Program-made: the position numbers and the translations under genes
Shown: positions 43,349 to 63,881 of the stretch, piece after piece
Layout: every line of letters begins with the position of its first letter
How positions within the stretch are numbered: the first letter of the stretch is position 1
The notes under the pieces: generated by a model
The model's input: only the letters and a program-made list of their open reading frames with translations
Databases searched by the model: none
What the model was told of the DNA's origin: nothing
IMG/VR virus record: IMGVR_UViG_3300037474_000152
Source: a virus
Strand: one strand, 5' to 3'
DNA: 64,000 nucleotides

Positions 43349-44419
43349 TTGCAGTTAATTGAAGCCTTTGCCGAACTAGGTCGAGTTGTCCGTTCCCAAG
43401 CAAACCGAGATATTGCCGATATCTACGAAGAGCGCATTGCAACTGCGTTCCACAAAGATGTGGGGAATCTGCTCTCCTCTATCAAGAATGAAATGTCATC
43501 TGACATGGACTGGCAAGCGCAGTACTCAAAATTGGATACTACAGCGCTTGCTTCCACACTTTCCACTATCAATCAACTTGGGAGAATACTGGGGCGTTAT
43601 TCCGAGCGTGCTGACAGGGAGGGTGTGGAGTTTGCGGACGACCCCACTCGCCTGCCATTTGATAAAGCGATCGCATATTTCCGTCAAAAGCTCAATATCC
43701 CCACCGGTACGTGGAAAACCATCCAAGGGGCTGAGAATGACTGGGCGTTTGGGATAGCTAAAGTCACCTGTGCCGAGATGTTACAGGATTTCAGGGAGGC
43801 ACTGGATAGGTATATTGCAGACGGTACGGGATTTGCTCAATTTGCAAAGGACTTCGATGCGATCGCACAAAACTATGGATGGCAGCCCAAAGGAGGAATA
43901 GCAAGGTCGGCTGACCTTGTGGCTAAGACTAACTTTCGTATGGCTTACGCAGCAGGACAGTGGGAGCAAAGACAAGACCCCGTGGTGAAGCAATTGCGTC
44001 CGGGTTTGATGTGGAGACACCGAGATTCCCCTAACTTCCGCCCTCACCACAAGGCACTAGATGGGATGGTGTTTGATGGGAATGACCCGCAGTATGCTGG
44101 GTTAAGCGCGCCATCGGGATTTGGGTGCAGGTGCCGACTCTACTCCGTTCCGTTGCCAGACAATGGGTTTGACGTGTTGAGCGATCGCCTCCCCTGCCAA
44201 CTCCCTAACGGTAAGGTGGGAAAAGTGCCAGCTATCAAGATCGAGGATAAGCTCTACCCGGTTGCCGATCCGGGTTTTTTCTATGTACCGGGTGCTAGTC
44301 CCATTTCTGCTCGCCCCCAGCTATTCCAGCAGATGCTTGAGAGGCAGCCGCCAGTGTGGCAGAAACTAATTAAACGAGCAATCCCACGAGCAATACTAAA
44401 GGTGATAGGCGCGGTGTGA
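43349..44419 (+). CDS. MuF-like head morphogenesis protein
   Basis: LPFDKAIAYFRQK, TNFRMAYAAGQWEQ, RPHHKALDG, PSGFGCRCR; TTG start MQLIEAFAELG. Confidence 0.9.
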   Translation: MQLIEAFAELGRVVRSQANRDIADIYEERIATAFHKDVGNLLSSIKNEMSSDMDWQAQYSKLDTTALASTLSTINQLGRILGRYSERADREGVEFADDPTRLPFDKAIAYFRQKLNIPTGTWKTIQGAENDWAFGIAKVTCAEMLQDFREALDRYIADGTGFAQFAKDFDAIAQNYGWQPKGGIARSADLVAKTNFRMAYAAGQWEQRQDPVVKQLRPGLMWRHRDSPNFRPHHKALDGMVFDGNDPQYAGLSAPSGFGCRCRLYSVPLPDNGFDVLSDRLPCQLPNGKVGKVPAIKIEDKLYPVADPGFFYVPGASPISARPQLFQQMLERQPPVWQKLIKRAIPRAILKVIGAV

Positions 44420-44475
44420 CGCGGATATGAGTTGAATGACCAGCAGGTAATTGTATCCATTCATCGGTTGATTAA

Positions 44476-45570
44476 ATGTTATTGATTGAAGCGTTTGCTG
44501 AATTAGGGCAACTCTTTAAAGAATCTAGCTTTGCCCAATCAGGGGGGCAACCCATAACTGATTCGGAAGTACTGGATTATGTGAATGGTGTTGTTCGCTC
44601 CATGATTCGCGATCGCAATTTATCCGTTGTTGGGGTAACAGTAGACGGCGATACCTTCAAGGGCGAAGCGCGGGTCAAGACCAGCCTCCGGCTGACCAAG
44701 CGATTTAGTTTTGAGATTTCTCCAGATTTCAAAACTTTCCAATCGCTCAACGCCGAAGAGATTGAGAAATTTGCGGAGCCAGTAGAGTTTAGGGCATCTG
44801 GCGGAAAAACCCTCAAGTGTAAAATTCAGCAATGTGGTGGTCGATGCCTTAAAGGTAAAGAGAAGTGTCGCATCACGATGAATGCCGAAGAGCGAAAAGC
44901 TCACGACAAAGCTTTGCGAAAGGTGGGAACCGTGGAAACATCCCTAGCCAAAAAACGACGGGAGACGAAAGAGGCAAAGAACGCTAACATTAATCCTCTT
45001 GCCAGCAAAAACCAGCAAACTGGCAACCGCCAGAATAATGATTTAAAGGCTACCTCCACTGATACTGCTTCAAAAAAACAACCAAGTAAGCTTTTGGCGA
45101 TACAGGACAACAATAAGATAAAGTCTAATTTCGATAGTCAATGGGCAAAAGCTGTTGATGACCTAAGTCTTTCTAGGATTAGTCAAGAAAAACTCAAGGA
45201 TTATAAGTTTGTTTTGAATGAAATTACAGCTTCCGAAGACAAAAAGTATGCAATCTTTGACGACAAAGGGAACATGCAAGCTGTCGCGACTTGGAAGAAA
45301 AAAAACGACTGTGTTTCTATTGGTCATTTGGCAACTGCCCCCTGGAATATATCTGGAGATGACCCGCGAAGTGTTAAAGGGGCAGGAACAAAGGCTGTTG
45401 TGCAAGCCGTCAAAATTAGTCAGCGCTTAGGTTTTGAAGGAAAAATTAGACTAGAGAGTGCTGATACCGCAAAGGCATTTTATGAAAAATTAGGATTTAA
45501 GTCACCCAGCAAAGATGTTTACGTCTTGAGCAAAAAAAATGCAGAAGAATTATTGAAAAAACATGGATAA
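44476..45570 (+). CDS. Virion-region effector 1: shared carrier domain, Cys-rich motif, C-terminal GNAT acetyltransferase
   Basis: MLLIEAFAELG leader; CKIQQCGGRCLKGKEKC; IGHLATAPWN...VKGAGTK...IRLES...AFYEKLGF. Confidence 0.75.
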   Translation: MLLIEAFAELGQLFKESSFAQSGGQPITDSEVLDYVNGVVRSMIRDRNLSVVGVTVDGDTFKGEARVKTSLRLTKRFSFEISPDFKTFQSLNAEEIEKFAEPVEFRASGGKTLKCKIQQCGGRCLKGKEKCRITMNAEERKAHDKALRKVGTVETSLAKKRRETKEAKNANINPLASKNQQTGNRQNNDLKATSTDTASKKQPSKLLAIQDNNKIKSNFDSQWAKAVDDLSLSRISQEKLKDYKFVLNEITASEDKKYAIFDDKGNMQAVATWKKKNDCVSIGHLATAPWNISGDDPRSVKGAGTKAVVQAVKISQRLGFEGKIRLESADTAKAFYEKLGFKSPSKDVYVLSKKNAEELLKKHG

Positions 45571-45629
45571 ACTGATTTCCACTTACGCAATACAAGATAG
45601 GCTTACAAGGAAAACTGTAACTAGTTTGC

Positions 45630-46055
45630 ATGAAAGTAGAAATTAATCTAACTCAAGTCAATGCCATGTTTGCAAAGGTCGATCGCGCATTGGGCGATGC
45701 GACACCTCTGTTCAACTTGATCGGGCAAGAGATGGAGCTAAGTATTGACGATGGGTTCAAGGGAGAGGTTGACCCTGACGGAAGTCCATGGGCAGCGCTC
45801 TCTCCTGGCTATGAAGCCCAAAAGCAGAAAAAGGGATTTATTGCCAAGATTAACCAGCGTCGTGGCGATCTAAGGGGGACGATAGCCTATAGAGCTTATC
45901 GCGATCGCTTGGAGATTGGGTCAAATGTGCCGTATAGTTTGCACGTCCAACGAAAGCGACCCTATCTCTACTCAAAATCAGGTGGATTGGGGCGAAGGGC
46001 TGAGCTTAGGATTGAGCGAGTAGCGGATAATTATATTCAGTCGTTGGTTCGTTAG
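45630..46055 (+). CDS. Phage virion morphogenesis protein (Mu gpG / P2 gpS-like)
   Basis: FKGEVDPDGSPWAALS...GDLRGTI...IGSNVPYS..Q...RPYL. Confidence 0.85.
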   Translation: MKVEINLTQVNAMFAKVDRALGDATPLFNLIGQEMELSIDDGFKGEVDPDGSPWAALSPGYEAQKQKKGFIAKINQRRGDLRGTIAYRAYRDRLEIGSNVPYSLHVQRKRPYLYSKSGGLGRRAELRIERVADNYIQSLVR

Positions 46056-47276
46056 ATGCTATTGATTGAAGCGTTTGCTGAATTGGGGCGAGTTGCTAGA
46101 GAGTATGCGGATAATTTCGCCGAGTCTATCACTGACCCAGACATCTTGAGTGATATTGAGGGCATCATCCAAGCTAAGTACACAGACTGGGATTCTGATT
46201 GCAGGATTACCAGTCTCACATTGGACGGAGATACTTTCAATGGTGAGTTTACCGACAGGGTTAACCTGAGAGTTGTCAAACGCTATGGTTTTACGGCAAC
46301 ACCTGTACGGCTGAGTTTCAAGCTAGTCAACCCTAGCGTTGTTGAAAGCTTTACAGAGGTAGACTTTGTAGCAGGCAAGAAGAAAAGCTGCCCAAAAGGT
46401 ACGCCATGTGGTGGCAGTTGCATCAGCAAGACTAAAACTTGCGTCAGTGAGTTGTCCCCCGAACAACAGAAGGCTCACAAAGCTGCATTGAGAAAAGCTG
46501 GAACCGTTGACACTTCGCTTGCCAAGAAACGGCGAGAGATGAAGGAGGCAAAACGCAACGACAGGCTTGGTATTACAAATATGGAGAAAACCCTCGAAAG
46601 AGGGAAGCGGATGACTGATGACATGAAGGTAGTGGGCAAGCGCTTAGAGAAGGGGTTTAAGGAACTTGAGAAAAAAAAGAAAGAAGCAAAAGTAACTTCA
46701 CTTGATAGCAAGAGAAAGAAAGGAGGTGATAATGCGGGGAAAGAACCAAGTGGGACAAAGAAAGATAACGTAACGTCACTTCAGTCTAAAAGGGCAAGTA
46801 AGTCAGTTAAGGAAAGGCTAGGCAAAGATGATGTTGAGGGAGCCATTAACCAAGTAATCAAAGATGCCGACGACGCCAAGAAAATTGCTAAAGAGGCGGT
46901 TACTGGGCTTGACAAAGCTCAGAAGCGCCTAGAGAAAGTGGCAGATGACGCACTGAAAAAGTATCCAGTCCTTTCCGGGGAAGAAACAACTAAAGGTAAA
47001 AACCCAAACCTTGGATCTAAGGAAAGAAATTTAAAAAACGGCAAATGGCTAGAGTTGCAGACAAATAACCCTGACATCCCCGATTCTGCCAGATATCTCC
47101 TAAATGCAATGGGGAAAGGAATGGCTAGACCGTTTCCGCTAGGGGATAGTAGAACTCGACAATCCGCTTGGCATGAATGGGCTAGAAATGCTCTGGGTGA
47201 AGCTGGCATTGATTACGATAGAAACGGAAAAATGCCAGCCCCTTCGGGTGGAGGTAAGCGAAGCAAAGGGAAGTAG
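46056..47276 (+). CDS. Virion-region effector 2: shared carrier domain, Cys-rich motif, Lys-rich linker, unknown C-terminal domain
   Basis: MLLIEAFAELG; SCPKGTPCGGSCISKTKTC; KAHKAALRKAGTVDTSLAKKRRE. Confidence 0.7.
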   Translation: MLLIEAFAELGRVAREYADNFAESITDPDILSDIEGIIQAKYTDWDSDCRITSLTLDGDTFNGEFTDRVNLRVVKRYGFTATPVRLSFKLVNPSVVESFTEVDFVAGKKKSCPKGTPCGGSCISKTKTCVSELSPEQQKAHKAALRKAGTVDTSLAKKRREMKEAKRNDRLGITNMEKTLERGKRMTDDMKVVGKRLEKGFKELEKKKKEAKVTSLDSKRKKGGDNAGKEPSGTKKDNVTSLQSKRASKSVKERLGKDDVEGAINQVIKDADDAKKIAKEAVTGLDKAQKRLEKVADDALKKYPVLSGEETTKGKNPNLGSKERNLKNGKWLELQTNNPDIPDSARYLLNAMGKGMARPFPLGDSRTRQSAWHEWARNALGEAGIDYDRNGKMPAPSGGGKRSKGK

Positions 47277-47279
47277 ATC

Positions 47280-47720
47280 GTGCCATTCGGAGCCTACGCA
47301 CCAAATCAAAAGCGCTTTCCTGGAGCGCAGATTGTCTACAGCATCCCCTATGACAGTGAAAACGCTGGTACGACAGAGCCAACAATTTTCACGGGCGCAA
47401 TAGCACCCCCTCTAGTTCTCGCCATTGCAAACCAGGAATACTTGTTTGCCGTATCGCAAGCTATGCGAATCGAGTTTTTCTGCCGCACTGACGACGAAGT
47501 TAGATACGCCTACCAGGAAGGTGGAACACATCTCCCCGGTCTTGGCTACCGAACGTTGCGACCAGGAAGCGAGAAAGATCTAAACTTTGGGAATGGGTAC
47601 TTCGATGGCACTCTCTACTTTGCCTCAAGTACGGCTGGAGCAGTTATCGAACTGGAGGTGTGGAGTGCCAACGCGATCAATTTATCGGCAGATGGGGGAG
47701 GCTCCGAGTTCAACCCTTGA
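47280..47720 (+). CDS. Hypothetical virion-region protein
   Basis: GTG start, 146 aa, beta-rich; operon context. Confidence 0.55.
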   Translation: MPFGAYAPNQKRFPGAQIVYSIPYDSENAGTTEPTIFTGAIAPPLVLAIANQEYLFAVSQAMRIEFFCRTDDEVRYAYQEGGTHLPGLGYRTLRPGSEKDLNFGNGYFDGTLYFASSTAGAVIELEVWSANAINLSADGGGSEFNP

Positions 47721-49032: not shown

Positions 49033-49054
49033 CCGCGTCATACCGCGCTTTCCC

Positions 49055-49852: not shown

Positions 49853-50123
49853 TGGTGATTAAAGTAATTGGTTGACCAACCCCGGAGCGCGTCAACGCTG
49901 CCGGGAACTTTTGTATTTTACCAATCTTTCGGCTAAAGCACAATTTTCTTCATCCTTTGAGGTGCTACCTTTTAGCCATTTTGTTAGCCAAGAAATGGAA
50001 GGGGATTCTTTGCACGGTTCAACCCAAGCAGCAAAAAGACAAGGCATTTGAGCGGTCAGTAGAAGATATTGCTTTAGCCGAAACTTTGCATAAGCGCGGC
50101 ATAACGCGGGTTTCTTCTTGCTA

Positions 50124-50406: not shown

Positions 50407-50435
50407 GATAAAAGCGATGGAGGCCTTAAGGTCGG

Positions 50436-51125: not shown

Positions 51126-51126
51126 T

Positions 51127-51477
51127 ATGCCAAAAACTGTAATTAATTCAACTGCGTACACGATAGACCCGTCAACGTACACAGATAGAAGCGCGGCTTC
51201 TGATGCCAGTGTTGCAAACTTTACTACTGTTTTTGCGGCTGGCACTACCCGAACTGAATTCTTTTTTCAAGCTAGCGACCCTGGCACGGGCAATGATACA
51301 GGCCCATTTTTCTTGTACTACGGCACAGGTGTGGGGGCAAAGATGTTTCGTAAGGTTTTTCCTGGTGAGTCAGTTCACAAAATTAATAACTTAAATAACT
51401 CAGACCTAGGGATCATTTCGGTCAAGTCTGCGATTGCTTCTCAGGGATTTATAGCTTGGGAGTGTACAGTAGCATAA
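51127..51477 (+). CDS. Hypothetical beta-rich protein
   Basis: 116 aa, coupled to neighbours. Confidence 0.55.
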   Translation: MPKTVINSTAYTIDPSTYTDRSAASDASVANFTTVFAAGTTRTEFFFQASDPGTGNDTGPFFLYYGTGVGAKMFRKVFPGESVHKINNLNNSDLGIISVKSAIASQGFIAWECTVA

Positions 51478-54400
51478 TGGCTGTAAATCTTTTTGATTCT
51501 GGAATAGCTAAGCCCGGAAGTTTGCAAAAGCGAGTGGCTCAAAAGCTGCCATACGCGCCCCGTCATCAACGTGCTCGAGTTGTCAAAAGCGCTCAAGCTG
51601 CATCGGTATTTCTCAACCAATCTTTTACGGCAAGTCAAGTTATCGATCTGTTAGGGCAATGCCGTTGGTTTAGCTTTGAGGAATACGTCACTTTCAAAGA
51701 TGTGTCAGCTACGCAACGAACCAACTTTGACACGATCAATACTGAGACTGTTCGAGATGCAAATTTTATTTATAGGGCTGACGTTCAAGTTAAGGCTGCT
51801 AGGGGTTTAGTCAAAGGAGAACTGTTAGTTTCTCCTGCTACTGGAGGGAATCCAGCTTTTCTTCGGGTTGATGGCATGTCTTTGGTAGGCGATCGAACGT
51901 TTGATATTTCAGGGAGTTTTTTATTAAATTCTAATTTTTCGATTATTACAGGATTGTCTGTTAATTATCTCGATGATCCGGCAAATACTTATCCAATGCG
52001 TTTAGTAGATGCAACAGAATTATCGATTAGATATGCAGCATACAATTCAATTACTTTTAAGGTAGGATCAACAACAATTACGGGTTCTCTCACAGAGTCT
52101 CAAGTCCCCTATAAAAAAGCTCGTCATTTCGTGACAACACGTCTTGATTCTTCGGGAATGGGACTTTGGATTAATGATGACAGTATTGCTGTAAGTTCCA
52201 CGAATACACAACTGTCTACGCTAACAAATTTTCAATTAGGTTCCGGATTAAAGGGAACTGTCTCTGATTTGATTTTTGCTCCAGCATTAACAAGCAATGA
52301 GCTAAAGGCTATTAGAACTTTTTTAGCGATTTACAAAGACATAGAGTCAGCAACTTATCAAAAATCTCAAACAAGTCTTATAACTGATTCATATTCTCGA
52401 ACATTTTTACCTTTTGGGAACACGGCAACCAAGGGAAAGAGTTTTACACAAAATGCCGATGCTATTTGCGTAGACAGCGACGGAACTCTGTATACAGCAG
52501 GAATTTACGACGAAGACGCTCATGCATGTGGAGCCTATACATCGGCTGGAATAAATAAAGGTATTTTTCCTTTTGGAGCCGTAGCCTCTTCTCATGCAGT
52601 AGCTACGGATGCAACCTACGCTTATTTTGCTGGAAGCGTGGGATCGACCTCCGGACAGTTTGGAGTAAGAAGATACAATAAAACAACTTTTGCTTTAGTA
52701 AATTATTCAAGTGTCAATGGTTTTCCTACTAGTACGTCAGCAGGAACTTCCTCCGATCCGTCGTTCTATCCAATTAGAGGACTTTCTGTTTCAGGTTCAG
52801 AAATCTATGTCTCCGATGTTCAGGCTAATAAAGTAAAAGTTTATAACACAGGAACTGGCGCTTTTGTTCGTGAATTTGCTTGTACAAACCCCTACCAGTC
52901 AACTATCGATGGTTCTGGAAACATTTGGGTAGTGCAGAAAATTGCGGGAGCGGGATTGGTTACGTTATTTTCTTCAACAGGCACTCAGCTTAAGCAAATT
53001 ACAACTGTTACGAAACCTTCAGGAGTAGCGATTAGTGGCACAACTCTTTATGTGGGAGACAACGGAACGAAGCAAATTCGTATTTTTGACGTGTCGAGTA
53101 CTCCTACTCAATCCTCTGTAATTGGTGCTTCTGTATTTGCTAGCTCCCGTCCAGTAGCAAGTCGAGGAAAAATTACGCCACTCTTTTGGAGAGAAATCAC
53201 TGACATTGATATAGATGGATCTGGTAATCTCTACGTATCAGATAGCCGATATGATATCGGAGCAAGAGTTGAATCTTATAAACTTAGCGATAGTTCACGA
53301 AACTATCAATTACTGGGATTATTATTTGTAGATGTTTGTGACATCGATCCAGACGACCAAACGATTGTATATTCTCGTTCTCATAAATTTAAGCTCAATT
53401 ACGCTAATAAAACCTGGTCTTATGATGCGTGTCTTGTAAACTCGGACAAATTCACTACGGATATCCGCCCCGATCATATTGGCAACAGCTTTGTCAATAT
53501 TGTTAATATTCTCGGTGATAAATTTTTATTACTTTCTAAAGCAACAAATAGTACTGAAGCTATTTTTGCTTTGTTTAGATTTAATAAAACATCGGAAGGA
53601 GAAACAGCCATTCCCTGCTTAACTTATAACTATTCAACAGGAAGTTATTGGGTAGATGGCAATGGAGATGGAATCGTTCAATCTGGTGAGCAAAACGTTG
53701 CACTAGGTCTACCATTTGGAACAATAGCTTCTAACGGTAATTTATTAAGTATCTCAGTATCTAGTGGAACCTTTATTCTTAAAATAACGCCAGTAGCAAG
53801 TCTAAATGGTTATGGTGTTCCGGTTTATGACTTTAATTCTGTTCAGTCTTTTACAATTCCAGGGACAGCTAACTTTGCTAATGTCAAAAGACTCATAGAA
53901 TCTAACGGAAGAATTTTTATTTCCGCTACTAGTAACTCTGCAAATACAGATGGTCGGTTTGCTGGGGAGATTATAGCTGAATATAGGTTGCAATCCAATC
54001 TAGTCAAGATCAGAGAATTTAAGATTCCCAACAACGACAATCTCTTGCACGTATCAAAAAACATAGCAGTGCAAGATGATTTACTGTTTGTCAGTTATTT
54101 AACTTCGGATGAGTACTATTACCCTAAGACGTTTAGATTAATTAGAGTGTTTAATCTATTAACAGGGGCAGAAATAGCAAAAACTCATCTATCTCCTTTT
54201 CCAGAAAATCTAAGCTGGCTGGACATCGACGAACCGATTCGAGTCAAAAAATCATCGACTTACCCTAATCAATACTTGATTGCCGCACAAGATGTGGCTT
54301 ATTTACAAAATCAAGTAACAATCTTGGACTTTCAGCTAAATGTCATTATTGGATACGATCCTCTAACTACTGCTTTTGTAGATCGAATAAACCGTAGTGG

Positions 54401-55109
54401 CGGGAGTATTTCTAGTAACGACATATTATCGGTTAATACTTTTATTGGATCAATACGTTCATTGATCGACGCTGGATTAATTTACGAGTTCGATCCATTT
54501 GCGGGAGATGATGCAAAGTCCGCCATTTGCAAACTGATCTATCAAGGTGCCGATCCTGAGTTTCTAACTAATACTAGTTACAGTCAATCTCCTGCAGGAA
54601 AAGCTCTGTATGCCCGAAATAAGGGCTTTACCATGCTTCGAGGCTCGGATCACAGCTATCTTGATACAGGTGTTCCTGGTAATAAATACGCAACAGTTTC
54701 AAATGGTGGATTAGGAGTTTATGTTCGTAATTGGATAGATAATACTGGAACTGCTATCGGTTCAGGACAACTATATATTAAACCTCGAACAACAGGAGGA
54801 ACCCTAGTAAACTATGCTGCCAATGCCACTAGGGGAACTAATTATTTTGTTGAAACTTTTGGGTTTGGTTGGTATACAAGTAATTCAGACTCTGCATATC
54901 GAAACGGTATTTTTCAGGCGAGTTTAGGTCAAGAAGCAATAGATACAGCTAATATTTCTATTGGACAAAGAATCGGACAACTGGATACAACTGCATCTGA
55001 TTTGGGATGCGCTTGCATTAAAAAGAACTTGACGGCGTCTCAAGAATTAACTTTGTACAATGCTGTTCAAACTTTGATGACGGCTTTTGGTCGTAATTCC
55101 ACTCCATAA
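51477..55109 (+). CDS. Large virion-associated protein: LamG-like domain, NHL/beta-propeller repeats, C-terminal lectin-like domain
   Basis: Repeats such as IDGSGNIWV, GVAISGTTLYVGD, IDIDGSGNLYVSD; TAATG coupling gives start 51477; AT-rich. Confidence 0.65.
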   Translation: MAVNLFDSGIAKPGSLQKRVAQKLPYAPRHQRARVVKSAQAASVFLNQSFTASQVIDLLGQCRWFSFEEYVTFKDVSATQRTNFDTINTETVRDANFIYRADVQVKAARGLVKGELLVSPATGGNPAFLRVDGMSLVGDRTFDISGSFLLNSNFSIITGLSVNYLDDPANTYPMRLVDATELSIRYAAYNSITFKVGSTTITGSLTESQVPYKKARHFVTTRLDSSGMGLWINDDSIAVSSTNTQLSTLTNFQLGSGLKGTVSDLIFAPALTSNELKAIRTFLAIYKDIESATYQKSQTSLITDSYSRTFLPFGNTATKGKSFTQNADAICVDSDGTLYTAGIYDEDAHACGAYTSAGINKGIFPFGAVASSHAVATDATYAYFAGSVGSTSGQFGVRRYNKTTFALVNYSSVNGFPTSTSAGTSSDPSFYPIRGLSVSGSEIYVSDVQANKVKVYNTGTGAFVREFACTNPYQSTIDGSGNIWVVQKIAGAGLVTLFSSTGTQLKQITTVTKPSGVAISGTTLYVGDNGTKQIRIFDVSSTPTQSSVIGASVFASSRPVASRGKITPLFWREITDIDIDGSGNLYVSDSRYDIGARVESYKLSDSSRNYQLLGLLFVDVCDIDPDDQTIVYSRSHKFKLNYANKTWSYDACLVNSDKFTTDIRPDHIGNSFVNIVNILGDKFLLLSKATNSTEAIFALFRFNKTSEGETAIPCLTYNYSTGSYWVDGNGDGIVQSGEQNVALGLPFGTIASNGNLLSISVSSGTFILKITPVASLNGYGVPVYDFNSVQSFTIPGTANFANVKRLIESNGRIFISATSNSANTDGRFAGEIIAEYRLQSNLVKIREFKIPNNDNLLHVSKNIAVQDDLLFVSYLTSDEYYYPKTFRLIRVFNLLTGAEIAKTHLSPFPENLSWLDIDEPIRVKKSSTYPNQYLIAAQDVAYLQNQVTILDFQLNVIIGYDPLTTAFVDRINRSGGSISSNDILSVNTFIGSIRSLIDAGLIYEFDPFAGDDAKSAICKLIYQGADPEFLTNTSYSQSPAGKALYARNKGFTMLRGSDHSYLDTGVPGNKYATVSNGGLGVYVRNWIDNTGTAIGSGQLYIKPRTTGGTLVNYAANATRGTNYFVETFGFGWYTSNSDSAYRNGIFQASLGQEAIDTANISIGQRIGQLDTTASDLGCACIKKNLTASQELTLYNAVQTLMTAFGRNSTP

Positions 55110-55236: not shown

Positions 55237-55252
55237 ACTCGTTGAAACGTGC

Positions 55253-56686
55253 ATGTCAGATGGACTGAAGTGGTTAGAGATATTCAGAGCGGGAAAGCGG
55301 ACTTCGTCTAACGGCGTTACTCGCGACTATTCCACTAGCGACCTGGATCAGGCGGTTGAAACTTACAACCCGGATAGCTTCAAGGCTCCACTTATTATTA
55401 GCTACCCAGCGCATCACACTGGCTCTTACGCAGATAGCGAATTACACAAAAGCCAACTTGCCTTTGGCTATCCCGAAAAGCTCAAGCGCATAGGTGACAA
55501 GCTTATGGGCGGCTTCAAAAAGATTTCTCCCAAGGTAGGCGAATGGATTCGCAATGGAGAAATCCTGGGGTTTAGCTCTAGCTTCTATCTGCCCAACTCC
55601 TTATACAATCCTTACCCTGGCAAGTTGTCTCTTCGTCACGTTGCGGGTTGCGGCGTCGATCCGCCAGCCGTAAAAGGAATGGAGTTGCCCGACAACTTCA
55701 GCGATGCTGAGCGGTCTGACGCGCTTGTTTACTCCCTTGATGAGTTTGAGGACTACTCAGAAGAGCAAGACGATACGGTCGAGTTTGGATTGGATGCTGA
55801 CGACGAAACGATAGAAGATGCCGTACTTGGAGCGAAAGTATGGAATGCCCTTAGGAATGTCGCCAGCTTCACGGGAACGTCTGATTTCATGGCGTTTGGT
55901 GACGGAGGGGTTGCCACTTTATTTAAAGATTTCTATCAACGAACGCGCGATCGTTTCATTGAAGAAAAAGGGGTAGAAGAAGCGGATAAGACTTACCCCA
56001 CTTACGTGCTAGACCAACTAGCTATCATGACTTCCCAGCCTTCCCCCTCATTTGCCACATGGGAAGACATCAGAGTATTGCAATCCCAGATTAATGAATT
56101 GAGGGTGCCGTCCGGTGGTAGTGACGGCAAGGACAATCTTGGGGAGTTTTTAAACGATTACAGCGAGGAGGATGACGAAGAGTTTATGCCCAGTGAAGCA
56201 GAATTCGAGGAGATGAAAGAGGAACTCTCCGACTTGAAGATAAAGGTCAAGCTGCTTGGTCAGGAAAACGAAAGGCTGACCAGCGAAAACGTCAACATCG
56301 CACAACAGCGTGAAACTGACCGAGTAACGGCATTTTGCGAACAATTGGTACGCGATCGCAAGCTTCTCCCTACCCAAAAAGACAAGGAAGTCCGCTTCAT
56401 TCTTTCCCTGGATAGTACCAACACTGCCGACTACGGAGAAGAGGGAACGCTAACACCCCGCGACGCTTATATGAATAAGCTTTCCGGTGGTCGGGAGCTG
56501 TGGTCGAACAAGCAAATGCCAATCGGTCCCGAAGATGCCCCTGCGTCATTTAGGGAGCGGGTGCCAGATGGTTTTGACGCCAAGAGCACGGCTCAGCACC
56601 GGCAGGTTCAGTCTTATGCCCAGGAACACAGCATTAGCTATTCCGAGGCTATAGATGCACTTCAAAAAACGGGAGCGCTGGACTAA
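55253..56686 (+). CDS. Mu gpI-like prohead protease/scaffold
   Basis: LEIFRAGK...DLDQAVETY.P...AP...H...AFG...FSSSFY...LRHVAGCG..PPAVKGM; acidic coiled-coil C-terminus. Confidence 0.88.
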   Translation: MSDGLKWLEIFRAGKRTSSNGVTRDYSTSDLDQAVETYNPDSFKAPLIISYPAHHTGSYADSELHKSQLAFGYPEKLKRIGDKLMGGFKKISPKVGEWIRNGEILGFSSSFYLPNSLYNPYPGKLSLRHVAGCGVDPPAVKGMELPDNFSDAERSDALVYSLDEFEDYSEEQDDTVEFGLDADDETIEDAVLGAKVWNALRNVASFTGTSDFMAFGDGGVATLFKDFYQRTRDRFIEEKGVEEADKTYPTYVLDQLAIMTSQPSPSFATWEDIRVLQSQINELRVPSGGSDGKDNLGEFLNDYSEEDDEEFMPSEAEFEEMKEELSDLKIKVKLLGQENERLTSENVNIAQQRETDRVTAFCEQLVRDRKLLPTQKDKEVRFILSLDSTNTADYGEEGTLTPRDAYMNKLSGGRELWSNKQMPIGPEDAPASFRERVPDGFDAKSTAQHRQVQSYAQEHSISYSEAIDALQKTGALD

Positions 56687-57036: not shown

Positions 57037-57044
57037 GGGGAGGA

Positions 57045-58043
57045 ATGGTCGTAGAATTTGTCCGCGAGGGCATGAATCGAAGTGAGGTGAAGGCTGGGTA
57101 CAACATGGTCCTCAGCGCTTACGCCACTGGCTACACTAACGCTGAATTTAAAGGACGCTTTCTTTCTCCCTTTGCTGAGGTCCCGGCACGAACGGGGAAT
57201 ATCGTTCAGTTTGACGACTCGGCATTTGAGATAGCAGAAGATGACAGAGCAGACGGTGGTCCTTTTAACGAAATTCAAAGCGGATACGAAGGCTTACCTT
57301 ACAGCTTGAGAAACAAAGGGCTTGCTTTTAAAGTTCCTGTCGAGCACGAGGAACAAGCGCAAACCGCCAACATCAATCTAGGGAAGCGTGCCAGTAACGC
57401 ACTAATGATGCGTTCGGCCCTCAATATTGAACTCGAACAAGCCCGCGTTGCTCGAAACCCAGCCAATTACAACGGGTTGGTTATTGCTCTTTCGGGGGCT
57501 TCTCAGTTTAGTGACTCAGGTTCTCGCCCCGATCAAGTTGTGGAAGTTGCAAAGCTTGCGATCGCATCTCGCACTGGGCGCAAACCCAACGTGATGCTGG
57601 GCGGAGAGCAAGTTACCTCGGCGCTGCGAACTCACCCGTTAATCCGTGCTAACTTTCAGCCGACTAGCTCAATGTCCATTACGGACGAGATGCTGGCTCA
57701 GTATTTCAACGTCGATCGTTACGTGAGTGGCGAAGCGATTTGGCGTAACCCAGCAACTAGGGCTTTGGAGTTTATTTGGGGCAAAGACTTAATTCTTGCC
57801 TACACCAACCCCAAGGCATTTGAAGGGAACGAAGGTCGAATCGCTTACACAACCGATAACGACATTGACAGAATGGCGGAACCCAGCAAGTTCTATACCT
57901 ACGTCCTTAAAGGTGTTCCCAAGGTGAGCAATCCCTTCTGGTGGGAAATGAACGATAGCTGGTACTACAAAATTCGCTTTGAGCGCCAGCATTTTGTCAC
58001 TGGCATGGATTCTGGTTATTTGGTTCAAAACGCAGTTGCATAA
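57045..58043 (+). CDS. Major capsid protein
   Basis: 332 aa after protease and cement; TGRKPNVML...ALRTHP.I...LAQYFNV..Y..GEA...WGKD.ILAY. Confidence 0.85.
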   Translation: MVVEFVREGMNRSEVKAGYNMVLSAYATGYTNAEFKGRFLSPFAEVPARTGNIVQFDDSAFEIAEDDRADGGPFNEIQSGYEGLPYSLRNKGLAFKVPVEHEEQAQTANINLGKRASNALMMRSALNIELEQARVARNPANYNGLVIALSGASQFSDSGSRPDQVVEVAKLAIASRTGRKPNVMLGGEQVTSALRTHPLIRANFQPTSSMSITDEMLAQYFNVDRYVSGEAIWRNPATRALEFIWGKDLILAYTNPKAFEGNEGRIAYTTDNDIDRMAEPSKFYTYVLKGVPKVSNPFWWEMNDSWYYKIRFERQHFVTGMDSGYLVQNAVA

Positions 58044-58067
58044 GCGCGGTATAACGCGGTTTTAAAA

Positions 58068-58918: not shown

Positions 58919-59607
58919 TGAAGTTTTCCGACTTTGTTTTGGCAATCAGACGGTTCAATCCTGCACTGACCCAAGCTCAAGCAAGCAAGGTTTGGGAAAC
59001 TTTCTTGCCTTTTCCACTCCAAGAAGCTATTGAGGAACGCATCGCCGTACTTAAAGTGCGATCGCGCAATCTTAAGGGCGACCCTTACGGGGGTGAGTCC
59101 CAAGCTCGGTCGCAATCCCAGCACTGGGTTGCCTATCAAGGCAGTAGTTATCCCGATTCTGGCGCAGCTCCTTTGCCGGGGGAAAGCTTCTCTCAGTCGA
59201 GAGAGCTGACGTTTGAGCACTATGTCGAGGTTGAAGACCTTAGACGGGATTACGAGAGAGCGCTGCTCATCCACGAATTAATTAAAGGGTTGCTCGCAGG
59301 GTATAGACCTTGCCACATCAAAGGGGTGAGGGGTCCAATGCGATTGGTTAGCGACGGACTTGTCTCCGCACGTACCGAAAACGAAACGGTCTATCGATAC
59401 AAGGCAACGTATCAGATCGGTTGCCTTTGGAGGCCTGCTGATATACCAGGGCTGTTTACCGTCGATCCGGATGCCGGGGATGGGTTTATTCCCGAGGGGG
59501 TGTTGGTTGGGATATTGCGATCGCCCGTCGATCGAGTGGGCGAACTGCCCGTAAGTCCAAAGTTTACTGATTTGAGGGTAGGGGAAGATGGTAGCAATTC
59601 TGGTTAA
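58918..59607 (+). CDS. Tail terminator/completion protein
   Basis: Between adaptor and sheath; TAATG coupling. Confidence 0.55.
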   Translation: MKFSDFVLAIRRFNPALTQAQASKVWETFLPFPLQEAIEERIAVLKVRSRNLKGDPYGGESQARSQSQHWVAYQGSSYPDSGAAPLPGESFSQSRELTFEHYVEVEDLRRDYERALLIHELIKGLLAGYRPCHIKGVRGPMRLVSDGLVSARTENETVYRYKATYQIGCLWRPADIPGLFTVDPDAGDGFIPEGVLVGILRSPVDRVGELPVSPKFTDLRVGEDGSNSG

Positions 59608-61105
59608 CCGAGGAACACCAGGTTATGAGTTATTGGTTGATTCGGCGGGTCCACAGACACCCGTCGTTGCAGTCTACAGTAGGTGCTACTTACTAATTAC
59701 AGCAACGGCGACTCTGACCAATCCACTGGAATTTGTACCGGTGGGAAGTATGGATGATTTTACCAACCTGTTTGGTTCATCTAGCGCTTTAATCCTCAAT
59801 AGCGTTGAGAACTACCTAGAGAATTTTGACCAGGGTTTGTACGTAGCGCGGATTGTTCCAGCCAGCATAGCCGCCGTAACAATTGGCACGCTCACCGCCG
59901 CTGCTACTTATACAGTGACAATCAACGGAACCCCAATCCCCTTCACTCTTGATGCTTCCCCCACAATGGCTGAGGCTGTATTAGCAGCCATAACGGCTAT
60001 CAACAATACCGAGGCGACAAACCTTGCAGTCGAAGCTGAGCCTAACCTGAACACAGATGGCACGCCCAATTATTCCACTGGGGTGTTTCGTTTGCGCTCC
60101 AAAAATCGTCAACCCTTCACGGCAACGGCAACTGGCAACGTCACTGTTTCGGCTGTGACCACCCCCACATCTCCTCAATACTGGGATTGGATTGCAGCTT
60201 TCAAAGAAACCGCCCGACTTTACGACGATGAAGCCCTTGGCTTCCTGTGCGCTCCTCAAGCTTTTTACGACACTCTTAACCAATGGGAGCGGACCCAAGT
60301 CGGCAACAGTATGGCGGAGTATGCCCGTGCCTTGCGCTGGGTTGCACTTCTCGATCCACACCAGCCGAGCGTTATTGACCACCCACGCAAAGCCAAGGCT
60401 GATGCAGCCGACTACGTTGCACCTCAAGGACACAGCTACTACTCCTATCCCTACTTCATCGACCGAGATTCTGACTATGTTGCTCCCTCGACAGCGATTG
60501 CCTCTGTGGGACTTCGCCGCTATTACGAACAAGGAATACAAGAGCCTCCCTGCGGCCCGCGTTGCGTTCTGAACGGCATATCAGGGGTGGCATACAAACT
60601 GGATAAGGCTCAGAAGATTGACCTAGCTGAAGCAAGTGTCAATATCAATATCTTTGAGCGCGGACGGGGGGCGATGCCTTACGACGATCTGACCCGCTCA
60701 ACCAATCCAGCGTTTGAGGCAATTAACGGGGTAGTGATTCTCAACAGCTTTGTAGAAACAGCCGAACGCACATTCAGGGCCTCTGACCTTATCCACACCT
60801 CGGTAGACAGCAGGGGTAAGTTTTACCTGCAAGTCCAACTGCTGCTTACTGGGGTTTGCCAACTGTTCTATGCGGCTGGTTGCCTTTATGGCATTCGGCC
60901 GGCTGACGGTTATCGAGTCGAATGCACGCCAGAGATGCAAAATGCTACAAACCTAGAGCAACGCATCGTCCAAGCGCGGGTGTTTCTTGTGCCAGTACCA
61001 ACAGCTAGAAGATTGCGGATTTATGCCTACCGAGTGGCAATCGATCAGATAAACGCCGCAATCGCAATCGTCGGCGGTTCTACCCAGTTATTGAACAACG
61101 CTTAA
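59588..61105 (+). CDS. Contractile tail sheath protein
   Basis: TPGYELL, VAPSTAIA, EPPCG...L.G, SVNIN, C..EMQ...LEQ..V.ARVFLVPVPTA..L.I. Confidence 0.9.
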   Translation: MVAILVNRGTPGYELLVDSAGPQTPVVAVYSRCYLLITATATLTNPLEFVPVGSMDDFTNLFGSSSALILNSVENYLENFDQGLYVARIVPASIAAVTIGTLTAAATYTVTINGTPIPFTLDASPTMAEAVLAAITAINNTEATNLAVEAEPNLNTDGTPNYSTGVFRLRSKNRQPFTATATGNVTVSAVTTPTSPQYWDWIAAFKETARLYDDEALGFLCAPQAFYDTLNQWERTQVGNSMAEYARALRWVALLDPHQPSVIDHPRKAKADAADYVAPQGHSYYSYPYFIDRDSDYVAPSTAIASVGLRRYYEQGIQEPPCGPRCVLNGISGVAYKLDKAQKIDLAEASVNINIFERGRGAMPYDDLTRSTNPAFEAINGVVILNSFVETAERTFRASDLIHTSVDSRGKFYLQVQLLLTGVCQLFYAAGCLYGIRPADGYRVECTPEMQNATNLEQRIVQARVFLVPVPTARRLRIYAYRVAIDQINAAIAIVGGSTQLLNNA

Positions 61106-61120
61106 GGGAGGGGTTAGCAC

Positions 61121-61558
61121 ATGCCTACACAATACGATCCGGCATCAGAAGCCGAGTTTAGCGTTCAACTGGGTGGCGATTTCGGGCAATACTTTTTTAC
61201 TAAGTTTTCGGGAGGCGATCGCTCAAGAGATTCGACCAAGTATCCGCTAGCCGATCGCAACCAGATGGGGAGTCTTGTAGGGCTGAGAAGCTATGGTGAC
61301 ATCAAACTGGAAACCGAATACATCCCCGAAATCCATGACGAACTTGACGACAAACTCTCTCGTTGGTGTGGCGAGAACCTGATTGTTCAGATTACGCCTC
61401 TCCAGCGTTGCTCCATTAACCTAGAGCAACGAGGAAGAATCAGAACCTATACCGGATGCAAGCCAAAGTCTGAGGCGTTTGGAGCTGTTGATCGGGGAGG
61501 TGGTAGACCTTCTGTTTTTTCAATTGAATTTACCGTCCAAGACATGGAATCGCAGTAA
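61121..61558 (+). CDS. Tail tube protein
   Basis: 145 aa after sheath; YFFTKFSGG...YGDIKLE...YTGCKP. Confidence 0.75.
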   Translation: MPTQYDPASEAEFSVQLGGDFGQYFFTKFSGGDRSRDSTKYPLADRNQMGSLVGLRSYGDIKLETEYIPEIHDELDDKLSRWCGENLIVQITPLQRCSINLEQRGRIRTYTGCKPKSEAFGAVDRGGGRPSVFSIEFTVQDMESQ

Positions 61559-61559
61559 C

Positions 61560-62195
61560 ATGCCAAAAGTTGAACTTTTATCAGACGCGGATAGCGAATC
61601 TCCAAACAACCACCCCTCCACCCCAGTAGAAGAGAAAACCCTATCATTCCCCTTGATCGGACAACCAGGGGAGGCAGTATTCAGGCTCCCCACTATTGGA
61701 AATGCGATCGCAGTTCAGTCTCGATATCCCAACCTTGAAGCAATAGACATCTGTCGAAAAATGGCAGAGGATGCGTTGATTAGCTGGGGGGATAACACCT
61801 CACTTCCTCCTGATGACGAGATTGACATGGCTGACGATTACGCAATGGTCGAACTATTCATGATTGATGGATCGACGGGGGAGTTTGACGTATTGCCGGA
61901 CAAAAGCCTTGCTTGCCAGACAGCCAAGGGCTTACTAGTTCTGCGCCGCCCAACAAGGGTCGATGCTCGTAAGGGCGAAAGCCTTTCGGCTCAAGTGCTC
62001 AAAGGCAAAGTAAACGCCATAACTTCAGATCTTATGTGGGCATGCGACTTGTGTGTCAAGTGGTGGAACGAAAGCCGCAAAATCATGCCTGGAGATTTTA
62101 ACGATCTACCTATCTCTGACTACGTGAACATTCAGGCGGCTTTGCGCTCCTTTTTTCCGCGTCGTACCGCGCCTAACAGAACAGGAGTATCTTGA
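61560..62195 (+). CDS. Tail assembly chaperone (short form)
   Basis: After tube; LRRPTRVD...DFNDLPISDY.NI..AL.SFF; slippery T6 near the end. Confidence 0.7.
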   Translation: MPKVELLSDADSESPNNHPSTPVEEKTLSFPLIGQPGEAVFRLPTIGNAIAVQSRYPNLEAIDICRKMAEDALISWGDNTSLPPDDEIDMADDYAMVELFMIDGSTGEFDVLPDKSLACQTAKGLLVLRRPTRVDARKGESLSAQVLKGKVNAITSDLMWACDLCVKWWNESRKIMPGDFNDLPISDYVNIQAALRSFFPRRTAPNRTGVS

Positions 62196-62337
62196 AGCGA
62201 CGTATCTCATGAATGGCGGCAACTTCAGCGGGTTCGAGGCTTACGAGCGACTGCCTGTAGAAGAGTGGCACGAGATGCTCAAAGTTCACAACCGAGTGGT
62301 AGAGCGGCACAACCGAGAGGTGGAAGGACGACAGTAA
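62151..62337 (+). CDS. Frameshift extension of the tail chaperone (gpGT-like) in the +1/-2 frame
   Basis: After TTTTTTC: FFRVVPRLTEQEYLEATYLMNGGNFSGFEAYERLPVEEWHEMLKVHNR...Q*; no upstream start with an SD. Confidence 0.65.
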
Positions 62338-63881
62338 TGCTAACGGGTGAGGCGACTGTATTTTCACAATTAGGTCAAGCCTTTAAGGGGTGGGTTTCGT
62401 TTGCCAGTGCCACAGATGACATAACAGACCCCGGCACCCTCGAAGAAATCAAGGGAATACTGGAAACCCAGTATAGTGACGGCATCACAAGTATAGACAA
62501 AGCCTACATAGATGGGGAAGACATCAGAGGTCAGTTTAGCGACCAACTAAACCTGCGCCTAGTGAAGCGCTACGCATTCCGCATCTCTGAGGATGACATT
62601 GCCTACAAGATGCTGAACAGCAAGGACATGGCAGCGTTTAACGAGGTGGATTTTGCGGCAACAAAGCCTGCGTCAGGGCGCAAAGCTCCCAATTGCAAAC
62701 CAGGAAATACTCGCTGTGGAGGTCGCTGTATTAGAGGGGAGGCTATCTGTAGGCCAAAGAATGACCAGGCAACCAAGGAAAAGGTAAAAGCGGTTAAGGA
62801 GAAAATCAAGTCAACTGAACCCAAGACAAAAACGACAAAGACTAAAAAGACATCTAATTCGGAAGAGTCAGTATCAGCTCAAGCCAAGCCAGTCAAAGAG
62901 GGTCAAAATGACCAGGCAACAGGAAAAACTAAAACACCTAACGAAAAATTAAAAGCAAAAAGTACTGCCAATAAAAAGCTAAAGCCAGAATTAGATGAAG
63001 ATGGATTGCCTTCTGCTGATGCTTTGTCTAGTGCTAAAAGGCAATCGCTGGGGGCTAACAGTTACAACGGAGAGCTAATAGGAAAAGCCAAGATCGGAGA
63101 AAAAGAATATTTTGTAAAAGGAATGCTTGGAGGAGAAAAAGCTGTTAATAACGAAATTGCCGTCTCAAAACTCGCAAAAATAGCAGGACTAGAAGAACAC
63201 TTCTTATCCGTTAAAAGCTTTGATATGGATGGCAAGCCAGCAGTGGCAACCGATTTCGTTAAAGGCAAAGACACTGTTGATATAGTGCCTAGAGAAGCCT
63301 TTAAAGGTGTCCCAGACAAAAGAAAAGAAGAATTGCTAGCTTTTGATTATCTTATTGGGTCACAAGACAGAAACCCCGCTAACGTCTTCGTAACAGACAA
63401 AGGCAAGATATTAATGATAGATAATGAATTTTCCTTAAAAAACAAAAGTGACAATTACAGCGACTTTGCCGAAGCTTACAACGTCGTGGCGGCTTCACGA
63501 TTTATCCAGAGCGATAACAAATTAAAACCAAGTAAAGATTTTATTTCTCGAATCAATAAAAACAAGAAAGAAATGGTTGAAGAGATGGAGTCAAAAGGGA
63601 TTGACTCCACGGGGTTTGTTAATCGACTGGAAAAAATGAAGTCAGGGGCAACATGGAAAGAACTACTTGGAGATGAGCAATGGGATGCATTGCCAACAAC
63701 AAGAGACTTAAGAAAACTAAAAGCGGAAGCTAAGCAGAAAAAAGAAGAGTTCGATAGAAGGATTGCTGAAGCACAAGCAAGATACGCCAACAGCGCAAAG
63801 CCCAAACCAGCTACTGCTGCTACGGTAGACGGTTTGTCGCTTTCGGCAGAACAAGTAGCTAAACTAATGGCAACACTATGA
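62337..63881 (+). CDS. Virion-region effector 3: shared carrier domain, Cys-rich motif, C-terminal HipA/PI3-4K-like kinase
   Basis: MLTGEATVFSQLGQAF leader (TAATG coupling); NCKPGNTRCGGRCI; YFVKG, NEIAVSKLA, FDYLIGSQDRNPAN, IDNE. Confidence 0.75.
   Translation: MLTGEATVFSQLGQAFKGWVSFASATDDITDPGTLEEIKGILETQYSDGITSIDKAYIDGEDIRGQFSDQLNLRLVKRYAFRISEDDIAYKMLNSKDMAAFNEVDFAATKPASGRKAPNCKPGNTRCGGRCIRGEAICRPKNDQATKEKVKAVKEKIKSTEPKTKTTKTKKTSNSEESVSAQAKPVKEGQNDQATGKTKTPNEKLKAKSTANKKLKPELDEDGLPSADALSSAKRQSLGANSYNGELIGKAKIGEKEYFVKGMLGGEKAVNNEIAVSKLAKIAGLEEHFLSVKSFDMDGKPAVATDFVKGKDTVDIVPREAFKGVPDKRKEELLAFDYLIGSQDRNPANVFVTDKGKILMIDNEFSLKNKSDNYSDFAEAYNVVAASRFIQSDNKLKPSKDFISRINKNKKEMVEEMESKGIDSTGFVNRLEKMKSGATWKELLGDEQWDALPTTRDLRKLKAEAKQKKEEFDRRIAEAQARYANSAKPKPATAATVDGLSLSAEQVAKLMATL

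Follow-up and report, generated by a model that had tools for sequence, protein, structure and literature searches.

We observed that the minor head protein MuF and three effector-like proteins (E1, E2 and E3) of a cyanobacterial phage begin with a common N-terminal leader, that purifying selection acts on the peptide sequence of this leader, and that its presence tracks whether the module behind it is free-standing or fused to the portal. The leader is, with a probability of roughly 55%, a portable targeting-and-processing propeptide, which would be analogous to the capsid targeting sequence (CTS) of T4 but not descended from it; by analogy, the leader and the fusion-state pattern of MuF together fit a capsid-loading tag like that of T4. 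The window, by which we mean the whole stretch of 64,000 nt analysed (IMG/VR record IMGVR_UViG_3300037474_000152), contains a Mu-type head module. The preliminary description had proposed a portable packaging tag in a Mu-like head. What stands of this is a peptide-conserved element at the N-termini of two unrelated families with a Glu-containing end; on the other hand MuF is not an independent gene, and the phage, despite its head module, is not a Mu-like transposable phage; it encodes DnaB and a Dam-type methylase.

The peptide M[Q/L]LIEAFAELG forms the N-terminus of MuF (43349), E1 (44476) and E2 (46056), and a six-frame scan of the window with LIEAFAELG returned exactly three copies, each at the first codon of one of these open reading frames. 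A degenerate DNA pattern for M-x-L-I-E-A-F-A-E-L-G matched the window at 44476 and 46056, where 0.00 matches are expected by chance. MuF starts with TTG immediately 3' of an in-frame TAG, which is credible because the same ORF in relatives begins with ATG at the same place. The leaders, all on the plus strand, comprise residues 1-23 in MuF (MQLIEAFAELGRVVRSQANRDIA, 43349..43417), 1-21 in E1 (MLLIEAFAELGQLFKESSFAQ, 44476..44538) and 1-23 in E2 (MLLIEAFAELGRVAREYADNFAE, 46056..46124). E3, a paralogue of E1 and E2, begins MLTGEATVFSQLGQAF; its leader (MLTGEATVFSQLGQAFKGWVSFAS, 62337..62408), previously noticed as a variant, is a long form with two additional residues, which is the usual form in relatives.

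The shared start had been put at about 11 residues, and it is indeed common to MuF, E1 and E2, with Q or L at position 2, but the real shared unit is longer, at about 17-25 residues, and consists of an amphipathic helix (core A-F-A-E-L-G-R-hydrophobic), a short variable spacer and an [F/Y]-[A/S/T]-[E/D] boundary motif. The MuF leader has the helix core AFAELGR and a degenerate boundary motif, DIAD, which corresponds to DFAD in relatives, and homology to fused MuF starts at D24 (DIYEER). In the structural model of E2 the leader is a separate helix (residues 4-19, mean pLDDT 86) followed by NFAE in a loop, and in that of MuF it is a helix of residues 2-16, with the VEFAD motif further downstream in a segment with pLDDT <50. 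The sequence of the leader reads as amphipathic, with charges at E5, E9, R12 and R15 and no hydrophobic run. A signal peptide or membrane-targeting N-terminus was rejected, as neither a hydrophobic core of >=10 residues nor a lipobox or twin-arginine motif was found.

MuF (356 aa, 43349..44419, plus strand) is a member of the SPP1 gp7 family of minor head proteins (PF04233, Phage_Mu_F, E 3.5e-13; phrog_220, E 6.7e-48) and is composed of the leader, a helical N-part, the VEFAD linker (F95-D97, nt 43631-43639) and the MuF core. The E proteins, also encoded on the plus strand, share an N-terminal carrier domain of about 165 aa with a Cys knuckle, for which no Pfam or PDB match was found, and differ in their C-terminal domains, which are weakly GNAT-like in E1 (44476..45570), Lys-rich in E2 (46056..47276) and HipA/PI3-4-kinase-like (weak Pfam matches) in E3 (62337..63881). 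Across the family the ends that follow the carrier include GNAT-like, kinase-like, ART-like and zincin-like domains. Since the carrier domain is common to E1, E2 and E3, the resemblance of their leaders is partly ordinary paralogy. MuF had been described as otherwise unrelated to the effectors, and profile-profile alignment of MuF against the E family does recover 18 leader columns only (E 4.5e-5). When a leader HMM was run in six frames over all the loci compared (0.74 Mb), confident matches were confined to the start of E-family and MuF ORFs, each at the first codon; the other matches were weak, internal and located on two unrelated contigs that had been found via the leader DNA pattern.

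The boundary motif that ends the leader also marks module joints. FAE-type motifs are located at every such joint, in the acidic linkers of the protease-scaffold protein and in the capsid protein (residues 43-45). Head-interior proteins contain 23 copies of [FY][AGS][ED] against 7.4 expected (about 3-fold), compared with 4 against 8.9 expected in the remaining virion proteins, and enrichment in head-interior proteins only recurs in three related loci (L002, L013 and L016). Given its position at module joints and this restricted enrichment, the motif is likely to be a prohead-protease site. The presumed processing enzyme is the prohead protease-scaffold protein (phrog_976; 55253..56686, plus strand), which itself carries seven [FY][AGS][ED] motifs in acidic linkers, mostly kept in orthologues. 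The major capsid protein (phrog_1005; 57045..58043, plus strand) contains a conserved SPFAE|VPARTG (F43-E45, nt 57171-57179), where maturation of its N-terminus may take place.

A variation in the arrangement of these modules is observed among the related loci. In L002, L003 and L004 a single 1043-aa protein comprises portal, InPase, linker and MuF, with no leader at the MuF junction, and L001 encodes a polyprotein of portal, InPase, MuF N-part, carrier and zincin in which the carrier begins at an FAE motif and lacks the leader helix. In the window, the Mu-type portal fused to an InPase domain (38359..40197, plus strand) stops three residues before the point at which relatives continue into VNFAE, the linker domain and MuF. 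It is separated from MuF by a variable island (40198..43348) that encodes a KilAC/BstA-like regulator (40521-41300, minus strand), small minus-strand ORFs and two GIY-YIG homing endonucleases (42340-42846 and 42843-43316); relatives have different cargo at the same place. The window MuF is about 71-75% identical, depending on the alignment, to the MuF part of portal-fused relatives. Whereas the fused forms lack the leader, all five free-standing MuF proteins that retain the N-part (in the window, L045, L014, L046/47 and L013) start with it. They do so at two junctions, before DIYEER or before the linker domain, the latter reading ASFTE|LALWGVWF in L013 against VNFAE|SVLWGVWF in fused L002. As four of the five share one junction, probably through one event, only two independent acquisitions by MuF can be counted. 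Core-only MuF proteins have M-A-D-D-P-T-R-L as their N-terminus, which picks up directly behind the F of VEFADDPTRL, and those of L001 and L016 have no leader at all. MuF is the C-terminal part that split off from a portal-InPase-MuF fusion and gained an E-family leader by recombination. A corresponding pattern is seen in the E family (243 representatives; 122 N-terminal and 21 internal carrier domains scored); the 21 representatives with an internal carrier have it downstream of portal, InPase or MuF. The leader core is found in 49/122 N-terminal and 0/21 internal domains (Fisher p = 9e-5), while the F[AST][ED] motif persists in either setting (88/122 and 12/21, respectively). GFAELL is present internally in one protein, P0074.

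It is very unlikely that the shared 5' ends merely reflect concerted evolution of DNA by gene conversion or duplication, with a peptide that has no function, as could arise from a common context for translation initiation or from a recombination hotspot tied to the HIP1 octamer GCGATCGC, which encodes A-I-A of the long-form leader. The near-identity of E1 and E2 reported over about 30 nt is real (31 of the first 33 nt, 94%), and extends to 24 of the 35 nt upstream, with identity further downstream at chance level. Upstream of E1 a G-like gene has left a relic of its 3' end (44441..44475, plus strand), reading GNCIHSSVD* where DNYIQSLVR* stands upstream of E2, so the similarity reaches outside the coding region. 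A G-like virion morphogenesis or neck protein (Phage_tail_S) is encoded at 45630..46055 (plus strand), with a stop codon abutting the E2 start. The E1/E2 near-identity is a recent duplication or conversion tract including the 35 nt upstream, and some of it reflects recent DNA exchange, not long-term selection. An in-frame stop codon immediately 5' of all three window starts, and A-I-A being written GCGATCGC without synonymous variation in 10 of 12 tabulated long-form leaders, also favour events at the DNA level. HIP1 is not leader-specific, however, since it occurs genome-wide (45 copies against 0.8 expected) and 5/9 A-I-A tripeptides in other genes use it, and the window's three leaders do not contain it. 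Outside A-I-A synonymous sites vary and residues are kept. The claim that the MuF copy differs mostly at synonymous positions is substantiated by codons 3-13 of MuF and E2, which show six synonymous and no non-synonymous differences (pS 0.69, pN 0; the probability that all six fall at synonymous sites under neutrality is ~3e-4). Moreover the 35 nt upstream of MuF are unrelated to those of E1/E2 (9/35 identical), although the peptide is identical. In the suggested comparison of amino-acid with nucleotide conservation, it is the peptide that is conserved: 17 leaders from six genomes keep A-F-A-x-L-G-R, although every one of the six Leu and four Gly codons, as well as several for Arg, Lys and Gln, occurs among them.

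Selection on the peptide could have a cause other than targeting. The leader might be the first structural helix or pro-segment of the E carrier, concerned with folding, effector inactivity or a protease exosite, and MuF would have received it as a passenger when recombination with an E gene at an FAE-type joint gave the orphaned MuF fragment a start codon. Contiguity of the leader with a confidently modelled domain is in keeping with this, as are the position of the junctions exactly at FAE-type motifs, expected of recombination between joints, the function of core-only MuF without a leader, and the retention of a leader-like segment internally in one distant subfamily (P0045 against P0051). 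We nevertheless consider it unlikely, because a segment that only supplied a start codon could drift, yet MuF copies keep the E-family core A-F-A-x-L-G-R despite about 66-71% whole-protein identity to the window MuF and saturated synonymous change; furthermore the leader helix is gone from 21/21 internal carrier domains, so the carrier folds without it. It is also possible to envisage the leader as a non-covalent tether to the portal (its crown or the InPase region) that replaces the lost covalent link, as opposed to a T4-like binder of the scaffold core. Covalent portal fusion and leader are alternative states of the same modules, and portal-InPase lies directly upstream in all split genomes; but MuF and up to three or four E proteins would have to divide twelve portal sites among them, and E3 is encoded in the tail module, 3' of chaperone genes. 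A tether is distinctly unlikely. Against a targeting role of any kind, stand-alone MuF proteins in other phages are not known to require a tag like this, and SPP1 gp7 binds its portal directly.

If the leader is a portable targeting-and-processing propeptide, head-interior proteins would have two interchangeable routes, either as a C-terminal extension of the portal (portal-InPase-linker-MuF, or portal-...-carrier-effector) or as a free protein with a leader. The leader would recruit the free protein into the assembling procapsid, the partner being the scaffold/protease core, as in T4, or the inner face of the portal. The prohead protease would cut at the FAE-type motif, the scissile bond being either the one behind Glu, as in T4, or the F-A bond, thereby removing the leader, and the same cut in the fused forms would free the modules from the portal, allowing them to exit with the DNA. 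More tentatively, a two-part cargo “grammar” may exist, in which the leader helix is a non-covalent stand-in for translation as part of the portal and the FAE-type joint is cut by a Mu-type prohead protease. MuF, InPase and toxin-like enzymes could then move freely between a portal polyprotein and a free gene, and a head lineage for which none is known would possess modular, engineerable cargo loading, with a receptor on the portal or scaffold.

Experimental demonstrations of capsid targeting peptides are limited to a few phages (T4 and P1), and the present loci approach a natural swap experiment, in which the same module is either tethered covalently to the portal or equipped with a conserved leader. 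This bears on the way in which Mu-type and SPP1-type heads take up and release “polyvalent” effectors linked to MuF or the portal. If correct, our reading would provide a defined tag of about 20-25 residues with which proteins could be loaded into cyanophage heads, a motif at which Mu-type prohead proteases may cut and a rule for telling which effectors encoded by metagenomic phages are injected. Should the leader be dispensable, the finding reduces to well-documented recombination at module joints.

The T4 CTS is reportedly common to the internal proteins IPI, IPII and IPIII and to Alt (Mullaney and Black 1996). We read the N-termini of IPIII and IPII from the T4 genome as MKTYQEFIAE|A, in agreement with the N-terminal targeting sequence of about 10 residues ending in Glu cited in the preliminary description. 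In the CTS, which has been reviewed (PMC9026906 and PMC5694885), residues 4 and 7 target the protein and residues 8 and 10 direct processing (PMC9026906). Like the CTS, the leader is a short, portable peptide at the extreme N-terminus, common to proteins with diverged or unrelated mature parts, as the CTS is to diverged internal head proteins, and has a hydrophobic-small-Glu end (F-I-A-E in T4, A-F-A-E or N-F-A-E here) at or in the presumed prohead-protease site. The cargo, as in T4, would be anti-host effectors injected with the DNA. In contrast to T4, with gp20, gp21 and gp22, the head described here has a Mu-type portal, MuF and a gpI-like protease-scaffold, the unit is longer (helix, spacer, second motif), and it alternates with covalent portal fusion, which has no counterpart in T4. 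Descent from the T4 CTS/gp21 system was rejected because the head is built of Portal_Mu, Phage_Mu_F, phrog_976 and phrog_1005 instead of a T4-type module (gp20, gp21, gp22 and gp23) and the CTS resembles the leader only in its last residues.

Encapsulin cargo-loading peptides are short terminal peptides that load unrelated cargo into an HK97-fold shell; they are usually C-terminal, bind the shell protein directly and are not known to be cleaved or to resemble the leader in sequence. In P1 the first 30 residues of DarB suffice for packaging (Gonzales et al. 2022, PMC9024508), so that there, as proposed for the leader, an N-terminal segment of <=30 residues sends an effector, in this case a large anti-restriction protein, into a myovirus head, but the Dar proteins have no consensus N-terminus, whereas that of the leader is strong and family-wide, and cleavage of the DarB signal is not described. 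In the giant phages phiKZ, 201phi2-1 and SPN3US, paralogues at about 34% identity keep identical N-termini with x-x-E protease motifs, as in SPN3US gp53 and gp54 with an identical 15-residue N-terminus (PMC5694885), and multiple cleavage motifs are found inside the propeptide. These propeptides differ from the leader in being mostly >100 residues long, with an A/S/G-x-E motif and a T4-like protease, and involve neither exchange with a portal fusion nor transfer to an unrelated family. The part of the survey of polyvalent head proteins by Iyer et al. 2017 (PMC5512222) used here describes fusions of the portal-InPase, MuF-effector and portal-effector types that carry ART, zincin, GNAT and kinase-like ends and would be packaged and injected, but suggests an embedded metallopeptidase (MPTase) as the agent that releases the domains; in that part we found no description of an N-terminal leader, an FAE-type joint motif or alternation between free and fused forms. 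The E family shares with these polyvalent effectors a constant carrier joined to variable enzymatic or toxin-like ends, often behind a portal, InPase or MuF.

Exactly three open reading frames begin with an initiator, one further residue and LIEAFAELG. These encode the window's SPP1 gp7-family minor head protein MuF (43349-44419) and two effector-like proteins, E1 (44476-45570) and E2 (46056-47276), as the preliminary description had reported. E1, E2 and E3 (62337-63881, with a kinase-like C-terminus) are paralogues that have ~165 N-terminal residues in common but possess different C-terminal domains. This common region, termed the carrier domain, comprises the leader helix, the FAE loop, a helix, a four-strand sheet, a Cx5CGGxCx6C knuckle and basic helices (AlphaFold model, mean pLDDT 86). 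The leader is the sole region common to the MuF and E families (18 columns align in profile-profile comparison and nothing elsewhere), and a leader HMM run over all loci examined gave confident matches solely to E and MuF ORFs, in each case at the first codon. A secretion signal is ruled out, as the leader has no hydrophobic core. The closest leader to that of the window MuF is found on E2 of the same genome. Such co-variation is clear for the window alone; there is no such signal in the related loci L014 and L046, and the MuF leader of L045 is nearest to E2 of the window, not to the L045 E protein compared. The window MuF has a TTG start located immediately behind an in-frame TAG, and the same ORF starts with ATG in relatives. 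A 12-codon ORF in another frame, MSESPTQLVAVN (43324-43362), overlaps the TTG start and no Shine-Dalgarno sequence is evident; translation of MuF may be coupled to this ORF, or may be weak.

The window represents most of a ~82-kb phage genome (a contig of 82,531 bp is on record for its E2 protein). Among its genes are those for baseplate and fibres, for DnaB and for a Dam-type methylase. Its Mu-type head module begins with terminase (36835) and a portal fused to an InPase domain (38359-40197), followed by a 3.1-kb island (40198-43348) encoding a KilAC/BstA-like regulator and two GIY-YIG homing endonucleases. MuF and E1 come next, then a G-like neck protein (45630-46055) and E2, with small genes downstream. 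A fibre-like gene encoding 1217 aa (51456-55109) is located inside the module, with the head-accessory genes on one side and the protease gene on the other; its product resembles an NHL or beta-propeller-like fibre by eye and has no PHROG match. The protease-scaffold (55253-56686), a 116-aa scaffold-like protein, the capsid protein (57045), adaptor, sheath and tube follow, and E3 completes the order. The tail chaperone genes precede E3, at a position where one would expect the tape measure gene; in the related locus L001 this position is instead taken by a gene for a PG-binding protein and one resembling a tape measure gene. The HIP1 octamer GCGATCGC, which is characteristic of cyanobacteria, is present in 45 copies (0.8 expected; window 1-64000, e.g. 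43667, 43859, 44181, 44609 and 45901) and is also abundant in relatives, with 16-40 copies in each locus of ~16-22 kb. Since structural relatives identified by fold search are likewise Nodularia and similar cyanophages, the host is almost certainly a cyanobacterium, and the octamer counts point to a HIP1-rich one. A scan of species genomes with MuF returned distant proteobacterial prophage MuFs only, and no cyanobacterial prophage. L046 carries a gene of the Acb2/Tad1-hairpin family (Pfam; anti-CBASS/Thoeris sponge family) between terminase and portal (4075-4311).

Few relatives exist for comparison, and their architectures differ. In L002/3/4, portal, InPase, linker and MuF form one protein of 1043 aa, and in L001 the portal, InPase, MuF N-part, carrier and a zincin form a polyprotein (P0014, 3-2246) accompanied by a separate core-only MuF. 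None of these bears a leader on the MuF part; the L001 carrier begins at its own FAE motif with the leader helix missing, and the core-only MuF starts MTDPTRL. In the window, L045, L014 and L046/47 the split occurs before DIYEER, with a different accessory island in each gap, and in L013 it occurs one domain earlier, where the leader is followed in the fragment by the joint ASFTE/LALWGVWF (VNFAE/SVLWGVWF in the fused protein of L002). The MuF part has a leader in all of these. The leader is therefore present on 5/5 free-standing MuF proteins that keep the N-part, at two junctions, and on no fused MuF, although this represents only two independent acquisitions by MuF. A similar tendency is seen in the 243 carrier-domain proteins that a profile search recovered from 1.84 billion representative proteins: the leader core occurs on 49/122 carrier domains that are N-terminal but on 0/21 that are internal (p = 9e-5). 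Both groups retain the F[AST][ED] motif, and one distant carrier subfamily retains a leader-like segment internally. The cargo of the gap between portal-InPase and MuF differs by genome (window 40198-43348, L045 7331-9858, L046 6701-9851, L014 5268-7304) and includes a lysozyme with a PG-binding domain in L046, and a DUF1653 gene with small minus-strand genes in L045. Downstream of the L001 polyprotein, the stop of an E gene (2533-3693) lies 2 nt before the core-only MuF gene (3696-4499); L016 (8910-10753) shows the same abutment, but with stop and start overlapping.

A [F/Y]-[A/S/T]-[E/D] motif closes the leader and makes up part of it; the motif is also found at module joints. The InPase-linker joint bears FAE, FAE, YAE or FTE, and the joint between the MuF N-part and core is VEFAD, in a segment modelled with pLDDT <50; core-only MuF proteins that start M-A-D-D-P-T-R-L begin exactly past the F of VEFADDPTRL. 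The carrier has the motif at its start and at a second site just before the Cys knuckle. Seven [FY][AGS][ED] motifs (DNFSD, EDYSE, NDYSE, ADYGE, SYSE and others) lie in acidic linkers of the protease-scaffold, which also has VEFG, a variant of this type of joint. The capsid protein has a conserved SPFAE/VPARTG, with FAE at residues 43-45 (57171-57179), ~45 residues from the N-terminus. All of these sites are candidates for self-cleavage and for capsid maturation. Head-interior proteins contain 23 [FY][AGS][ED] motifs versus 7.4 expected, and other virion proteins 4 versus 8.9, a pattern that recurs in three relatives. Such a distribution is what a prohead-protease site would be expected to show, and the motif is a likely candidate for one. 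Hydrophobic-x-Glu sites of T4 and giant phages are similar to the motif (PMC5694885, PMC9026906); we found no literature on the cleavage specificity of Mu gpI-type proteases.

The preliminary description had proposed selection on the peptide, to be set against conservation of the nucleotide sequence. In codons 3-13, MuF and E2 differ by 6 synonymous changes and by none that is non-synonymous (P ~3e-4), and A-F-A-x-L-G-R is retained in 17 leaders from 6 genomes with free variation in the codons for Leu, Gly, Arg and Ala/Ser, so that overall the conservation is at the amino-acid level. The only DNA stretch that does not vary encodes the A-I-A of long-form leaders, which are two residues longer; it is spelled GCG ATC GC, the HIP1 octamer, in 10/12 tabulated, but HIP1 is rejected as the cause of conservation because it is genome-wide and missing from the window's three leaders. 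E1 and E2 are identical at 31/33 nt at their 5' ends and match at 24/35 nt upstream, where a relic of the G-like gene end is retained before E1; this near-identity is a patch of recent duplication or conversion.

The preliminary description had suggested looking for the leader on unrelated proteins in phage proteomes; outside this phage clade, none appeared in the IMG/VR and JGI metagenome pattern scans. The short-form DNA pattern gave 6 IMG/VR matches, all internal or chance (one in an RNA-virus polymerase), the long-form pattern gave 2 relatives and nothing else in IMG/VR, and its 11 matches in JGI metagenomes were all internal and close to the number expected by chance. A leader-only protein search with residues 1-40 of the protein P0007 returned the self-match only. 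The E2 N-terminus had no tblastn match in 50,697 cultured phage genomes, among which Nodularia phages were matched by a distant family member only; gp198 of Nodularia phage vB_NspS-kac65v161 is a member in a culturable phage (N-terminus MLADLFFRLNNYNCSVVNFSE). Fold searches with the carrier model gave no meaningful match in the PDB and, in BFVD, returned uncharacterised cyanophage paralogues only. The knuckle (E2 residues 112-129, 46389-46442), also present in the paralogues, recurs, sometimes several times per protein, in ORF044, 045, 047 and 048 of Aphanizomenon phage CL131 (L049 39276-48140), which adjoin the tape measure gene. LC-MS/MS of purified virions identified every one of these four proteins (supplement of PMC6293099), which lends indirect support to family relatives being virion proteins.

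We propose that head-interior cargo would arrive by one of two routes, built into a portal polyprotein or made as a separate protein that bears the leader as a tag, and that the protease would then cut FAE-type joints, removing the leader or releasing modules. It is possible that the leader is merely the first helix of the carrier domain, carried along by recombination at FAE joints, but the same core residues are still conserved on MuF, which counts against pure hitch-hiking. A role in targeting and processing is slightly favoured, with a probability of roughly 0.55. The idea of a portable packaging tag in a Mu-like head stands in part: the correlation with fusion state strengthens the targeting reading, and the comparisons partly support the leader as a capsid-targeting-like propeptide in Mu-type heads, a variation on a known theme. 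Portal, MuF and InPase polyvalent proteins have been described by Iyer et al. 2017 (PMC5512222), where a targeted reading turned up no mention of the leader or the FAE-type joint motif. P1 DarB and SPN3US gp53/gp54 provide further precedents. The closest functional analogue is the capsid targeting sequence of T4, where IPIII and IPII both have the N-terminus MKTYQEFIAE/A (read from the T4 genome), although it differs from the leader in lineage, length and context.
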